Shown in pieces: positions 12,961-18,547 of a stretch of DNA of 24,000 nucleotides; position 1 is the stretch's first letter; every line of letters begins with the position of its first letter. A program made the position numbers and the translations under genes. The DNA comes from Parvicella tangerina (GTDB lineage Bacteria; Bacteroidota; Bacteroidia; Flavobacteriales_D; Parvicellaceae): assembly GCF_907165195.1 (NCBI RefSeq), contig NZ_OU015584.1, positions 2,237,291 to 2,261,290 on the forward strand, written 5' to 3'. The notes under the pieces were generated by a model. It was not told the DNA's origin, made no database searches, and saw only the letters and a program-made list of their open reading frames with translations.

Positions 12961-13095
12961 ATGACAAATACATCTAATCATCAGGCTGACATAAAAAATG
13001 CCAAAAAAGGCACTAGAAGCAGCAACACGACCTATGCAAAAGCGCAGGAGGGTCGTGGGAAACAGCTAAATCTGAACCAAAAAGGTAAAAGATAG
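12961..13095 (+). CDS. Small basic peptide (44 aa), unannotated in the ORF track
   Basis: ATG at 12961 and TAG at 13093-13095 give MTNTSNHQADIKNAKKGTRSSNTTYAKAQEGRGKQLNLNQKGKR. TATAAT lies at 12939-12944. It is followed directly by a hairpin terminator and then the GT-radical SAM gene. The composition (N/Q/K/T-rich, no Cys) resembles small N/Q-rich ...QLNPN-type peptides I recall from other bacteria. Confidence 0.45.
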   Translation: MTNTSNHQADIKNAKKGTRSSNTTYAKAQEGRGKQLNLNQKGKR

Positions 13096-13108
13096 CTGTG
13101 CATTCAAG

Positions 13109-13134
13109 AGAGGAGAAAATCTCCTCTTTGTTTA
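13109..13134 (+). terminator. Intrinsic terminator/attenuator between the peptide gene and the operon
   Basis: AGAGGAG-aaaat-CTCCTCT (13109-13127) followed by TTGTTTAT. It starts 14 nt after the peptide stop, and its T-rich tail ends about 15 nt before the next ATG. Confidence 0.6.
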
Positions 13135-13149
13135 TCAATAATCACTATT

Positions 13150-15441: not shown

Positions 15442-15442
15442 A

Positions 15443-16882
15443 ATGAAACATACAAAGTCCCTCGAAAAACTAAAGTCTCTATTTGAAGCTCAATCTGGAA
15501 TACAATTAGCGGTTGTGTACGGATCGTATGCGAGAAAAGACTACACTCCTAATTCTGATTTGGACATTCATATTATCCGAAATGAGAAATTAAATTTTAA
15601 GTCCTTCGTCAATGAATTGGAACAGCTTTTTAATGACGAACTGAGGCACGTTTTACCAGTTGCTCAAAAAGAAAAGGTTGTGCTTTATTTTAAGGATTAT
15701 CCTAAGATTGAAATAAGTATATCGAATAAAACGGATAAACTTAAAAGAGATTTTATAGGTAGTGAAATTACAGATATTGAATCAGCAATTATCCACAAAG
15801 TAGAAGATTCAAATGAAGTTCAAGAATTGATTTATGAACTAAAGAAAGGAGTTCCTGAGTATTTGAATAAAACTACTTTAAGCTCATACATTGACGAGGT
15901 AATTGATCGGTTCTTATATGAGTTTGAAAACTGTTCGTCATCCCATGGAAAAAGTGATGGATACCGTTTCTATTTCTTCTATAACATTGCTCTACATTCA
16001 TTAATTCAGCTTGAATCATTAAAATATGGAACAGATCGTTTCAATTTTTTACCTAAGCAACTAACATCCAAAATTATTCAAGAGGAGAAAGATCAAAAAG
16101 AAATTTATGCTCTTGCAGGAAGCATTTACCTCCCAGATGCTAATAAGAAAAAGCGTTCTTTATTAGATAGATTCTACAAGACCGTAGAAACGTTTGTTTC
16201 TTCAGATAAATTGATGTCTATTAAGGACTTTTGTGAGGGTATTTATAACCGTGATGCCATTTGGAATTTCAGAGATTTATCGGAAAATATTCCAACGATT
16301 CAACCTCAACTAGTGTTTCGATCAGCATTACTAACCATTTATCAATATGATGATCAGCTTTCTGACTTAATTGAATCTAAAAATATCACAACTATAATTG
16401 ATCTAAGGGCACAGAGAGAATTGACGGAATTCAAATACATCCCTAAAATAAAATCGACTGTAAATTACGTCCATTGTCCATTAGATCCTTGGGATCAACC
16501 AGATTGGTTTAAAAAGGATTATCAACAAGGTTCAAATGCAGAAATTGCATACTTGTACTTTATTATGTGTTGTCAAGAATCGATTGTTAAAGCGTTACGG
16601 GAGATTGCTAATTCAAATGGTGGCGTTGTGATTCATTGTCATGCAGGAAAGGATCGAACTGGAATCTTGGCTGCTTTAATTTCTCTCATTTCAGGTGCAA
16701 ATTTAGATCATATCATTCAGGACTATCTTGCTTCGGAAAACGATACTCAAAGTTCGCTTTTAAAAATCGTCTTAGATTACCTTCAAAACGAAGGTGGTTT
16801 GACGTCCTACTTAGTAAAAGCAGGAATGTCAGAGAATGAAATTTTACAACTTAAAAGAAAATTGTCAAGGAATGGATACTAA
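15443..16882 (+). CDS. Fusion protein: Pol-beta-type (MNT/KNTase-like) nucleotidyltransferase plus helical domain plus CX5R tyrosine-phosphatase-like domain (479 aa)
   Basis: The track ORF starts at 15314 inside the previous gene. The in-frame ATG at 15443 is 1 nt after the upstream TAG. NTase motif VVYGSYARKDYTPNSDLDIHII (GS...DxD). Phosphatase P-loop VIHCHAGKDRTG (Cys codon 16637-16639). Confidence 0.8.
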   Translation: MKHTKSLEKLKSLFEAQSGIQLAVVYGSYARKDYTPNSDLDIHIIRNEKLNFKSFVNELEQLFNDELRHVLPVAQKEKVVLYFKDYPKIEISISNKTDKLKRDFIGSEITDIESAIIHKVEDSNEVQELIYELKKGVPEYLNKTTLSSYIDEVIDRFLYEFENCSSSHGKSDGYRFYFFYNIALHSLIQLESLKYGTDRFNFLPKQLTSKIIQEEKDQKEIYALAGSIYLPDANKKKRSLLDRFYKTVETFVSSDKLMSIKDFCEGIYNRDAIWNFRDLSENIPTIQPQLVFRSALLTIYQYDDQLSDLIESKNITTIIDLRAQRELTEFKYIPKIKSTVNYVHCPLDPWDQPDWFKKDYQQGSNAEIAYLYFIMCCQESIVKALREIANSNGGVVIHCHAGKDRTGILAALISLISGANLDHIIQDYLASENDTQSSLLKIVLDYLQNEGGLTSYLVKAGMSENEILQLKRKLSRNGY

Positions 16883-17849
16883 AAATCAACTCAAATCATT
16901 TTTTACTGAACATTGGAAATATATAGCAGTAAGTACCGCTTGTGAATTTGGTGTTTTCGATGCTCTTATAGAATCAAAAACATCCAAACAATTTGCGGAA
17001 CAATTAGGTATAAACGAAGAAAAAACATCATTGCTTTTAAATGCTCTAGTTTCAATTGGATTTTTAGATAAAAAAGAGGATTACTATACCACAAATGAAC
17101 TTTCGGTATTTCTAACCGAAAAGCACCCTGATAGTTTGAGGTATGCCTGTATGAATTGGAGTGGTATTCACTTGACAGCATGGCAAAATCTTCGTTATAC
17201 AATTGCAACAGGTAAAAGTGCATTTGAGGATGAATACTACTTTTTCAACCAACCTTTTTTTGAATATCTCAATGAAAATCCAAGTGAGAGAAAATTTTAT
17301 CAAAAAGCAATGAATGAATATGCTAGAGATGATTATAAAACACTCCCCGATTTAATTGATTTTAGCAAATGTAAATCTGTTATTGATGTTGGAGGTGGAT
17401 ATGGTGCTTTACTAAAACATTTAAAGAAAAAATATCCAAACCTGAATTGCACACTATTTGAGCAGCTCAATGTTCTAGGTGATATTTGTTTAGATTATGA
17501 GTTCTTCAACCAAACTCACGGAGATTTTTTTGAAGAAATTCCAAAAGGATCAGATACAATTATTCTTGCAAGGATATTACATGATTGGAACTACAACAAA
17601 GCTTTAAAGATTTTGAATAATTGCTATGATGCGTTGCCAGATAACGGCTCATTATTCATCATTGAGAATTGCACAGACAAGACAAATATTGATTTATCAC
17701 TACTTTCTCTTAATATGTCCGTAATGTGTGAGAGTTTTGAAAGAAGTTCAACTGAGTATATTTCTCTAGCAAACGAAGCAGGGTTTCAATTTGAGGATGA
17801 TGTCAAATTAAACGAATTACAAACTGTTCTAAGATTCATCAAAAAATGA
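16872..17849 (+). CDS. Class I SAM-dependent O-methyltransferase, family 2 (COMT/ASMT-like), with N-terminal dimerisation domain
   Basis: SAM motif VIDVGGGYGALL and the catalytic-His region ILARILHDWNYNKALKIL. ATG 16872 overlaps the upstream stop by 11 nt. The alternative ATG 16836 would overlap by 47 nt. Confidence 0.8.
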   Translation: MDTKNQLKSFFTEHWKYIAVSTACEFGVFDALIESKTSKQFAEQLGINEEKTSLLLNALVSIGFLDKKEDYYTTNELSVFLTEKHPDSLRYACMNWSGIHLTAWQNLRYTIATGKSAFEDEYYFFNQPFFEYLNENPSERKFYQKAMNEYARDDYKTLPDLIDFSKCKSVIDVGGGYGALLKHLKKKYPNLNCTLFEQLNVLGDICLDYEFFNQTHGDFFEEIPKGSDTIILARILHDWNYNKALKILNNCYDALPDNGSLFIIENCTDKTNIDLSLLSLNMSVMCESFERSSTEYISLANEAGFQFEDDVKLNELQTVLRFIKK

Positions 17850-18547
17850 AATGGCAACAAATAAACGTCTCTAATGATGGCACACATTTTCTGTATGAAG
17901 GAAATTTGATTTTTGGTAAACACTTTATTGAAGTCCTTAAATTTCACTCTCCTGGACTTGCTCCTGTAGTGGATGAATCTGGCGCTTATCATATCAATGA
18001 ATTAGGAGATGCGTTATATTCAAAAAGGTACAATAGAACCTTTGGTTTTTATTGTAATAGATCTTCCGTGATTGAAAATACAGATTGGTTTCATATAGAT
18101 GAAAAAGGAAATAGGATTTATTCAAACTTCTATTCATGGACAGGGAACTACCAAGAGAACCTATGTACTGTTCGGAACAAAGCGAACCAATATTTTCATA
18201 TTGATTTGGATGGTAATCGTATTTATTCAGAAAATTACATTTACACAGGTGACTTTAAAGATGGGGTCGCTTGTGTAAAGCTCCAGAATGGAAAATTTAG
18301 ACATATAGATTCAAATGGAAATCCTATTAATGATTTACTTTTTGAAGATCTCGGAATCTTTCATAAGAACTTTGCTACAGCCAAAGATGCTAGAGGATGG
18401 TTTCATATTGACAGGAAAGGTAATGAACTATATTCTGAACGCTATTTGATGATTGAACCATTCTATAATGGTTTTGCGTTAGTCACTCTGTTTGATAATT
18501 CGAAAAGAATAATTGATGAGAATGGTCAAGTAATGTTGACCTTATGA
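17846..18547 (+). CDS. WG-containing (KWG-type) beta-repeat protein (233 aa)
   Basis: The start sits in an ATGA overlap with the OMT stop. About six repeats of roughly 37 aa: DWFHIDEKGNRIYS, QYFHIDLDGNRIYS, KFRHIDSNGNPIND, GWFHIDRKGNELYS, each preceded by F.[DN]G.A.V-like strands. Confidence 0.75.
   Translation: MKWQQINVSNDGTHFLYEGNLIFGKHFIEVLKFHSPGLAPVVDESGAYHINELGDALYSKRYNRTFGFYCNRSSVIENTDWFHIDEKGNRIYSNFYSWTGNYQENLCTVRNKANQYFHIDLDGNRIYSENYIYTGDFKDGVACVKLQNGKFRHIDSNGNPINDLLFEDLGIFHKNFATAKDARGWFHIDRKGNELYSERYLMIEPFYNGFALVTLFDNSKRIIDENGQVMLTL

Follow-up and report, generated by a model that had tools for sequence, protein, structure and literature searches.

The Undecim Cluster is an eleven-gene array present in most arthropod Wolbachia, where it is highly expressed and, in an obligate strain, duplicated; Wolbachia itself is not easily cultured or engineered. 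In the annotated phage WO order (WD0611-WD0621), a GlmU-like transferase and an NAD epimerase/dehydratase are followed by a 'glycosyl transferase/moaA-nifB-pqqE family protein' and a fusion of 564 amino acids (aa) of a WG-repeat protein with an O-methyltransferase (OMT), after which come a PhyH dioxygenase, an ABC exporter and two L-allo-threonine aldolases. UC3 (WD0613) was recognised as a glycosyltransferase-radical S-adenosylmethionine (SAM) fusion, with functions assigned 'based on annotation and homology' (Bordenstein & Bordenstein 2022, PMC9203015). Expression of the Undecim proteins was reported together with the KWG-repeat and OMT fusion of WD0614, and syntenic homologues were listed in Capnocytophaga granulosa and Saprospira grandis (Baldridge et al. 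2015, PMC4701759). In December 2025, the functions of the cluster were given as 'currently unknown' (PMC12801941). In second-hand accounts, the array on Rickettsia plasmid pREIS2 is called aminoglycoside antibiotic synthesis/resistance, which is a prediction. Here, we analyse a four-gene operon of Parvicella tangerina, located in a stretch of 24,000 nucleotides (nt) of contig NZ_OU015584.1 (the window), and show it to be a Bacteroidota relative of the Undecim core.

Relation to the Undecim core

The operon and the two halves of its first protein were delimited as follows, each gene being an open reading frame (ORF):

13150-15441, + strand, gene 1, ORF of 763 aa
13150..14421, + strand, N-terminal domain of gene 1 (residues 1-~424), glycosyltransferase family 4 (GT4; GT-B fold, retaining type)
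14422..15441, + strand, C-terminal part of gene 1 (residues ~425-763), radical SAM (rSAM) domain with a truncated SPASM/twitch-like region
15443-16882, + strand, gene 2, ORF of 479 aa
16872-17849, + strand, gene 3, ORF of 325 aa
17846-18547, + strand, gene 4, ORF of 233 aa

Gene 1 aligns end to end with the phage WO protein UC3 (WD0613) at 47% identity, both being GT4-rSAM/SPASM fusions that share the four-Cys insertion. For gene 4, identity to the WG region forming the N-terminal half of UC4 (WD0614-type) is 48-49%, and UC4 also contains an OMT domain; UC3-type GT4-rSAM and UC4-type WG/OMT proteins are, thus, both matched in the window, and in both cases the cassette is cargo of mobile islands. 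The window differs in that WG and OMT are separate genes in reversed order, in the addition of a nucleotidyltransferase (NTase)-phosphatase, and in leader and regulator. The GlmU-like protein, the short-chain dehydrogenase/reductase (SDR) epimerase/dehydratase, PhyH, the ABC exporter, two Thr-aldolase-like, pyridoxal phosphate (PLP)-dependent proteins, GlpT and Ugd, all present in phage WO and Rickettsia, were not found among the window ORFs scanned. Judged from this sequence comparison, the operon is a relative of the Undecim core and not a member of the eleven-gene cluster.

We conclude that the GT-rSAM/WG-OMT core, noticed before in phage WO and on Rickettsia plasmids but not characterised, has a Bacteroidota variant in this cassette, which differs from it in its phosphatase modules, leaders and regulators. 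An earlier note, made from the letters of the window alone, could match the operon to no described pathway. This needs correcting insofar as the core is homologous to UC3/UC4 and to the pREIS2 array, which have been described, and stands insofar as they are uncharacterised.

In the following, G1 denotes a gene 1-type GT4-rSAM protein and WG a gene 4-type protein. A clade 46-49% identical to gene 1, with a WG protein following, was found on IMG/VR contigs, in GenBank phage WO records and on Rickettsia and Arsenophonus plasmids; copies of the Undecim Cluster are carried by Rickettsia plasmids pREIS2 and pRA1, Arsenophonus plasmids, Cardinium and Phycorickettsia. G1 relatives that are 52-61% identical to WD0613 occur on Rickettsiales-type, Parabeggiatoa-type (gammaproteobacterial) and other metagenome contigs in the order SDR - G1 - WG-OMT, with PhyH in three out of four and, in one of them, a His_Phos_1 phosphatase between G1 and WG-OMT. 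The proteobacterial versions add a nucleoside diphosphate (NDP)-sugar epimerase/dehydratase, a PhyH dioxygenase, PLP aldolases and, in most, an ABC exporter, a layout typical of secondary metabolism. Close syntenic relatives of the signature genes are present in the culturable Flavobacterium lacus, Bizionia echini, Capnocytophaga granulosa, Lacinutrix and Algibacter, among others; with these carriers, genetics and metabolomics on the Undecim question therefore become feasible.

Domain architecture of the four proteins

The N-terminal half of gene 1 scored over cut-off with both Rossmann-like domain models of GT4 enzymes, Glyco_transf_4 (PF13439, 7.7e-17) and Glycos_transf_1 (PF00534, 4.3e-29), and contains the EX7E motif (E331-X7-E339). 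The C-terminal half reached 34.6 bits with Radical_SAM (PF04055; cut-off 29.5), which at the sequence level places it in the superfamily, and contains CNLSCTMC (C439/C443/C446, CX3CX2C); the SPASM model of Pfam was matched with 45.1 vs 21.5 bits (1e-11). Both motifs are invariant across 22 homologues, as are five Cys of the C-terminal region, where the auxiliary-cluster pattern reads C693-X12-G706-X4-C711(C712) and C754-KT-C757. The full seven-Cys SPASM signature (CX9-15GX4C...CX2CX5CX3C...C) is not present in gene 1. Because its CX2CX5CX3C block is absent, one auxiliary cluster of the twitch-like kind fits better than two. The combination of a glycosyltransferase with an rSAM domain in one chain represents uncommon chemistry.

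An insertion in the GT4 N-domain has four invariant Cys (C129, C148, C156 and C160; window 13534-13629), which are also conserved in Wolbachia WD0613. They could form a Zn or additional Fe-S site joining the enzyme halves; confidence of the AlphaFold2 (AF2) model is low in that region. With Foldseek, the GT4 domain best matched MshA, GlgM, sucrose-phosphate synthase and BshA (probability 1.0), at an identity of only 15-19%. Three of these four enzymes (MshA, GlgM and sucrose-phosphate synthase) glycosylate phosphorylated acceptors.

Assignment of the rSAM half to a curated family was attempted and rejected. The best NCBIfam model, TIGR04317 (tungsten-cofactor maturase), gave 66.9 vs 380 bits and PqqE 33 vs 381 bits; ScmF and twitch models were also far under cut-off, and the viperin models NF038283/TIGR04278 were not reached. 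NCBIfam EpsE, PglJ and lipopolysaccharide (LPS) transferases matched gene 1 weakly, e.g. with 51.6 vs 400. Sequence and profile searches of the PDB with the rSAM half returned SuiB as the sole match (3e-5), and BtrN gave no significant match to it in these searches or in NCBIfam.

Gene 2 consists of a Pol-beta NTase domain (residues 8-81), a helical linker and a Cys-based phosphatase (PTP) domain (residues 271-436). The NTase domain has the motif GSYARKDYTPNSDLD (GS-X(9-13)-DxD, here GS...DLD) and scored over cut-off with the Polbeta/NTP_transf_2 models PF18765 (41.5 bits) and PF01909 (35.5 bits). The phosphatase domain contains HCHAGKDRTG, conforming with HCX5R(S/T), and matched Y_phosphatase3 (PF13350) with 104.6 vs 22.2 bits (1e-29), as well as PtpB (1ywf) and 8dhi in the PDB.

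Gene 3 belongs to the family-2 (COMT/ASMT-type) OMTs, with 125.8 bits (2e-36) for Methyltransf_2 (PF00891) and 34.6 bits for Dimerisation (PF08100). Its translation contains VIDVGGGYG (DVGGG, SAM) and ILHDW (HDW, catalytic His), and its best PDB matches are OMTs of natural products and phenolics (6c5b, 1e-34; MmcR).

Gene 4 matched WG_beta_rep of Pfam with about six FHID-G repeats, and its AF2 model (pLDDT, the predicted local distance difference test, 95.2) shows a small beta-propeller-like fold. Its 847 homologues are nearly all 233 aa long, and their alignment has 75 invariant positions, seven of them His. By sequence, gene 4 had no match in the PDB; the structure search gave generic beta-propellers only (TM ~0.5) and no informative neighbour.

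The architectures proposed in the earlier note, i.e., a GT-B glycosyltransferase with rSAM domain, an NTase-phosphatase fusion, a small-molecule OMT and a six-repeat WG protein, were, thus, all borne out by domain models and motifs. Its SPASM/twitch claim was right as to CX12GX4C and CKTC and did not extend to the full SPASM signature.

Conserved unit, fusion proteins and proposed pathway

Homologues of gene 1 number in the thousands, and the best 120 are full length, 72-95% identical and mostly from Bacteroidota metagenomes. A scan of one genome per species gave 80 loci, the hosts being Flavobacteriales, Chitinophagales, Cytophagales, Sphingobacteriales, Bacteroidales, Saprospiraceae and Capnocytophaga; gene 1 is ~80% identical across orders, and horizontal spread is therefore indicated. 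The census, done by tblastn and ORF clustering, comprised 82 loci, of which 76 had enough sequence to be informative. In all 76, a WG protein follows G1. The slot between them is occupied by an NTase-PTP fusion, by PTP alone or by a non-homologous His_Phos_1 protein; gene 2 homologues, including PTP-only forms, were counted in 38 loci and His_Phos_1 in 34. An OMT is found in about half of the loci (35-36/76), and in L068, L070, L073, L079, L082 and L087, GT4 (~428 aa) and rSAM are separate genes. Neither Wzx/Wzy nor a lipid-carrier transferase, a peptidase or a RiPP (ribosomally synthesised and post-translationally modified peptide) recognition element was annotated beside the cassette in any locus.

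The conserved and selected unit is, thus, G1 with WG and a phosphatase, with OMT, NTase domain and GT4-rSAM fusion being optional. Since three unrelated phosphatase types fill one slot, dephosphorylation is the shared requirement. Co-occurrence outside the source genome, on which the earlier note had staked its operon, is given by this synteny; its four-gene set as the conserved unit had to be narrowed. The operon is a real, horizontally mobile accessory cassette.

Directly 3' of the cassette, L054, L059, L066 and L075 have a large serine recombinase, and in L054 and L059 this is followed by genes for ribose-phosphate pyrophosphokinase and ribosomal protein L25; such a recombinase followed by housekeeping genes suggests a recurrent integration site of islands. 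A cassette 80% identical to the window was also found in a record titled as a metagenome-assembled genome of Vulcanococcus limneticus (L008), a bin labelled cyanobacterium. Mis-binning of a Bacteroidota contig is the probable cause here, rather than transfer between phyla.

The rSAM domain alone was searched against 1.8 billion cluster representatives, with domain content read from Pfam. Among the 87 proteins obtained at E < 1e-30, many of them long, single chains were found in which further enzymes are joined to GT4-rSAM:

P0247 (2277 aa): WG, OMT (Methyltransf_2), GHMP kinase, GT4 and rSAM/SPASM
P0255 (2458 aa, Chromera velia Cvel_1502): OMT, GHMP kinase, GT4 and rSAM/SPASM by Pfam, with an N-terminal WG region by BLASTP
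P0250 and P0251: GHMP kinase, GT4 and rSAM
P0395: NTP_transferase (UGPase-like), kinase with GalK signature, GT4 and rSAM
P0257 (Stephanoeca diplocostata): NodU/TobZ-type O-carbamoyltransferase, GT4 and rSAM

The N-terminal WG regions are homologous to gene 4, with 38% identity (7e-37) in P0247 and 31% (2e-22) in P0255. In P0395, the N-terminal part matches UTP-glucose-1-phosphate uridylyltransferases and the kinase (residues 392-841) matches galactokinases, its closest PDB entry being the uncharacterised 9ulx 'AbGHMP' (4.5e-51), for which no paper was found in a literature search. A homologue is also present in Cyanophora paradoxa. As far as domain content can tell, sugars or other small molecules are the substrates of every domain added, and it is on these partners that the case for a small-molecule sugar pathway rests most firmly; the fusion of WG to GT4-rSAM indicates a part for WG in the chemistry and not in regulation.

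On this basis, we favour, with some reservation, the view that the product of the cassette is a small molecule derived from sugar (a glycoside or pseudosugar) and sometimes methylated. With an NDP-sugar as donor, the GT4 domain would glycosylate a soluble acceptor that is probably phosphorylated, and the fused rSAM domain, with one auxiliary Fe-S cluster, would take a hydrogen from the new glycoside, which might then be oxidised, epimerised, dehydrated or ring-contracted. A phosphatase (in the window, the PTP part of gene 2) would strip a phosphate off an intermediate, the OMT would add an optional methyl group, and the WG beta-propeller would serve as an indispensable partner in a catalytic or substrate-holding role. 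Domains, catalytic motifs, gene order, fusions and the kinship with UC3/UC4 are shown directly, whereas we infer in which order the steps occur, that the acceptor is phosphorylated, which radical reaction takes place and what part WG plays. Expression in the window would be set by the leader, in which RNA motif, small ORF and hairpin follow one another, and in many relatives by a divergent RtcR/PspF-like sigma-54 activator instead.

The phospho-acceptor enzymes among the GT4 matches, together with the non-orthologous phosphatase slot, suggest synthase/phosphatase logic. In the GT4 pathways that supplied the best structural matches, i.e., MshA with MshA2 (mycothiol), sucrose-phosphate synthase with its phosphatase, and GlgM, a dedicated phosphatase gene likewise comes after the transferase; they differ in having only 15-19% identity to gene 1 and neither a fused rSAM domain nor a WG partner. 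Twitch/SPASM rSAM enzymes with glycoside substrates catalyse dehydrogenation, epimerisation, dehydration or ring contraction. BtrN and its relatives are sugar-tailoring rSAMs of this twitch/SPASM kind in aminoglycoside pathways, working downstream of GT4s such as BtrM. They generally share with gene 1 an rSAM core, a C-terminal auxiliary-cluster region and a GT4 partner, and with the cassette and its relatives tailoring by OMT or carbamoyltransferase and, in some relatives, an exporter; the window differs in having no 2-deoxy-scyllo-inosose synthase or aminotransferase, and there is no significant sequence match to BtrN.

Several observations weigh against this pathway. The structure model of gene 1 is only moderate (pLDDT 72.8), and its rSAM domain matches no characterised family over cut-off, so that the chemistry is suggested by analogy only. 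The kinase beside a UGPase-like domain fits activation of a donor sugar, which weakens the argument for a phosphorylated acceptor. The SPASM domain and the upstream small ORF with its hairpin would also fit peptide maturation. The sigma-54/RtcR-type regulator, the in-operon viperin and the defence neighbours are unusual for ordinary secondary metabolism.

The earlier note's proposal of a compact small-molecule pathway for a glycosylated, methylated product gains from the synteny across 76 loci and from the fusion proteins, and the placement of the rSAM domain in a housekeeping LPS/capsule clade, which would have spoken against it, was not observed. The minimal unit of G1 and WG, with optional phosphatase, OMT, carbamoyltransferase, kinase and pyrophosphorylase steps, narrows the search for the product.

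Alternative roles, leader and genomic context

The same chemistry might have an immune role, with a glycoside or nucleoside-like inhibitor made against the replication of phages or competitors; we regard such an inducible chemical defence as possible, if unlikely. Stress or infection would be sensed by an RtcR/PspF-like sigma-54 activator or, in the window, by the leader. A divergent sigma-54 activator was, indeed, found in 36-38 loci, in a long (~600 aa) and a short (~310-350 aa) form. Among PADLOC models, RtcR_PspF1--CARF_AAA_HTH fitted it best (1.9e-80), and NtrC1 and PspF are matches of its AAA+ core; a PDB search for the N-terminal sensor of the long form matched the AAA+ core only. Loci with an activator have a TGGCAY-N5-TnG element ahead of the first operon gene. 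The strict sigma-54 consensus TGGCAC-N5-TTGC was found in L070 only, and a relaxed -24/-12 pattern was seen by eye in long-activator loci and in several short-activator loci (e.g. L023, L066). Neither a sigma-54 element nor an activator gene is present in the window.

In activator loci, the first operon gene encodes a conserved protein of ~100 aa (s99/s101), the stop codon of which often overlaps the gene 1 ATG; s99 had no PDB or Pfam assignment. A third family of ~96 aa (c74), located ~100-400 nt upstream of gene 1, replaces s99/s101 in L039, L041, L046 and L053, where it is preceded by a hydrophilic peptide of 46-50 aa, 'MSKSK...AASRIQS...KGSFAARAQSAA'. With their divergently transcribed sigma-54 AAA+ activator, -24/-12-like element and small gene at the head of the operon, the relatives, thus, resemble RtcR-RtcBA and PspF-PspA; they differ in their cargo, which is biosynthetic and not RNA repair or membrane stress, and the window has no activator gene.

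Between s99 and the GT4-rSAM gene, a true prokaryotic viperin (NF038283, 4e-86, over cut-off) is encoded in L001/L004, L070 and L073, e.g. at 9128-9988 of L001 (Flavobacterium lacus); this concerns only 3-4 of the 82 loci. Among 136 nearest-neighbour proteins from 41 loci, the commonest were type I restriction subunits with YgjP, McrBC, GajA/Old-like ATPases, WYL regulators, phospholipase D (PLD) nucleases and integrases. These frequencies are qualitative, being taken without background comparison, and mobile islands collect unrelated cargo. The window itself has HsdM- and HsdS-DUF2779-type genes, the cassette is carried on phage WO, plasmids and IMG/VR contigs, and gene 1 passes the Pfam GT4-conflict gathering score (28.5 vs 26). 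PADLOC 2.0, however, assigned no specific system to the four operon proteins (pVip model 5.5e-7 on the rSAM core, NTase models ~1e-7), no effector or toxin domain was seen, and the eukaryotic single-chain versions favour a housekeeping-type metabolite. Literature searches on RtcR with viperin, on pVip with Flavobacterium lacus and on the domain combination of the operon gave nothing useful. The RtcR-like activator, the in-operon viperin and the restriction/defence neighbours mean that a conflict role, which the earlier note had ranked as the weaker option, is not clearly weaker as far as the biological role is concerned.

A wider and rather doubtful extension is that the cassette is an inducible chemical-immunity module whose radical-SAM-tailored glycoside would stop phages or viruses from replicating, and that its chemistry, carried on phage WO and on Rickettsia/Arsenophonus plasmids, would contribute to the effects, good or bad, of endosymbionts on their insect hosts, with the protist single chains reflecting transfer of a whole pathway to eukaryotes. 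An induced antiviral or antibacterial product would, if true, constitute a type of biosynthetic immunity beside the viperins.

Synthesis or modification of an envelope glycan (exopolysaccharide, EPS, or LPS), as proposed by annotation for UC1-UC3 and UC10, is improbable in our assessment. GT4 enzymes are common in LPS/EPS loci, gene 1 has weak NCBIfam matches of this kind, and there are a published model for WD0611-WD0613 (PMC9203015) and an ExpE7-like domain (Baldridge et al., PMC4701759). The NCBIfam scores are, however, far under cut-off, and across the 82 loci the cassette is accompanied by neither a flippase nor a polymerase, lipid-carrier transferase or membrane segment. Its context is variable and island-like, not that of a capsule/LPS locus, and the structural neighbours of the GT4 domain are soluble small-molecule enzymes.

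Direct reading of the sequence gave a gap of 1 nt between genes 1 and 2 (TAG 15439-41, ATG 15443), an overlap of 11 nt between genes 2 and 3 (ATG 16872, TAA 16880-82) and an ATGA overlap (17846-17849) between genes 3 and 4, in agreement with the close same-strand packing noted before. For gene 3, an alternative in-frame ATG at 16836 is possible; alignments of homologues begin at the 16872 start. Gene 1 starts at 13150, and a start at 12961 was ruled out, because the in-frame TAG at 13093-95 closes a separate ORF of 44 aa. Of the extent 12961-18547 given earlier, the right end and the four genes were, therefore, retained and the left boundary was not. The following leader features, overlooked before, and one feature at the 3' end were located:

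12908..12940, + strand, DUF805b-like RNA motif (Rfam RF02914), 38.0 bits vs gathering score 35.6
12961..13095, + strand, type A small ORF of 44 aa, basic and hydrophilic, MTNTSNHQADIKNAKKGTRSSNTTYAKAQEGRGKQLNLNQKGKR, in the frame of gene 1
13107..13129, + strand, stem-loop of 10 bp with U-rich tract, -13.4 kcal/mol, z = -2.1
18524..18541, + strand, weak terminator-like hairpin overlapping the end of gene 4, from a consensus scan only

The last of these is a possible candidate for the operon end. The RNA motif lies 20 nt 5' of the small ORF in a block of ~95 nt conserved in type-A loci, with 62 of 85 aligned columns invariant. At the homologous position of L005, DUF805b scored 29.9 bits, which is under threshold, and a literature search on DUF805b gave nothing useful. 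A Mahella-1 match in Rfam (25 bits vs 70.7) was taken as chance.

The type A small ORF is kept at the equivalent position in ten other loci. In their comparison, 227 of 325 pairwise substitutions fall on codon position 3 and indels are multiples of three, so that it is protein-coding; it had no match in Pfam, NCBIfam or PADLOC. The stem-loop that separates the small ORF from gene 1 resembles an attenuator or a leaky terminator, and unrelated, stronger hairpins (z = -2.5 to -7.3 for the loci folded) occupy the equivalent position in other small-ORF loci. Two further unrelated families of basic peptides (31-50 aa) fill the slot in 13 more loci, giving three unrelated families and a small ORF ahead of gene 1 in ~24 of 76 loci. 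The small ORF could encode a precursor peptide or a co-expressed small stress protein, or the leader could act as an attenuator.

With the small ORF as precursor, the rSAM domain would modify the peptide, the GT4 domain would glycosylate it and the OMT would methylate it. Mycofactocin and PQQ provide the model, with the SPASM maturases MftC/PqqE, the glycosyltransferase MftF and the methyltransferase MftM. Shared general features are the SPASM rSAM, the glycosyltransferase, the methyltransferase and a small upstream ORF; SPASM is matched over the Pfam threshold, the best PDB sequence match of the rSAM half is the peptide-modifying SuiB, and a coding small ORF with a stem-loop, as in ~24 loci, is typical of precursor genes with leaky terminators. 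However, the models of these maturases, including PqqE, are far under cut-off on gene 1, and the three small-ORF families have no common core motif or Cys. The small ORF is not universal, about two thirds of the loci having none within 10 kb. Neither a recognition element (RRE) chaperone nor a peptidase was found in the operon or its neighbours, and the Bacteroidota loci have no dedicated exporter. The fusion partners are all sugar enzymes, and the GT4 neighbours are small-molecule transferases. A RiPP-like role is, therefore, quite improbable, and the sugar-derived small molecule remains our preferred product.

Repair or modification of RNA (tRNA) under RtcR-like control, by Pnkp/Hen1-like end healing with GT4-rSAM acting on a nucleoside, is very improbable, as the RtcR-like regulator and the superficial likeness of phosphatase, NTase and methyltransferase to RNA end-healing sets are set against an OMT of the small-molecule family 2 that is not Hen1-like, an optional NTase, the lack of a ligase or RNA-binding domain, and sugar kinase and pyrophosphorylase fusions that indicate sugar metabolism.

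Upstream of the operon, the window contains three genes:

8679-8873, XRE-type helix-turn-helix gene
8870-10948, type I HsdM-like methylase
10945-12810, fusion of one HsdS target-recognition domain with DUF2779 (621 aa), directly upstream of the operon

The window lacks an HsdR gene, and these genes (8679-12810) form an unusual restriction-modification-like trio. Further to the left, about ten ORFs (716-7419 on the minus strand, and 7856-8158), including proteins of 590 and 252 aa, had no match in Pfam or PHROGs. This left-arm block has a GC content of 0.38-0.42, compared with 0.30-0.36 in the operon, and may be a separate mobile element; two of its ORFs have homologues upstream of the cassette in L028. 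To the right, a strong terminator-like hairpin of 12 bp (19012-19038) is located just before the gene of a small GIY-YIG protein (19065-19310), and a SpoIIE/PP2C phosphatase with a weak TerB-like N-terminus is encoded at 20364-21578.

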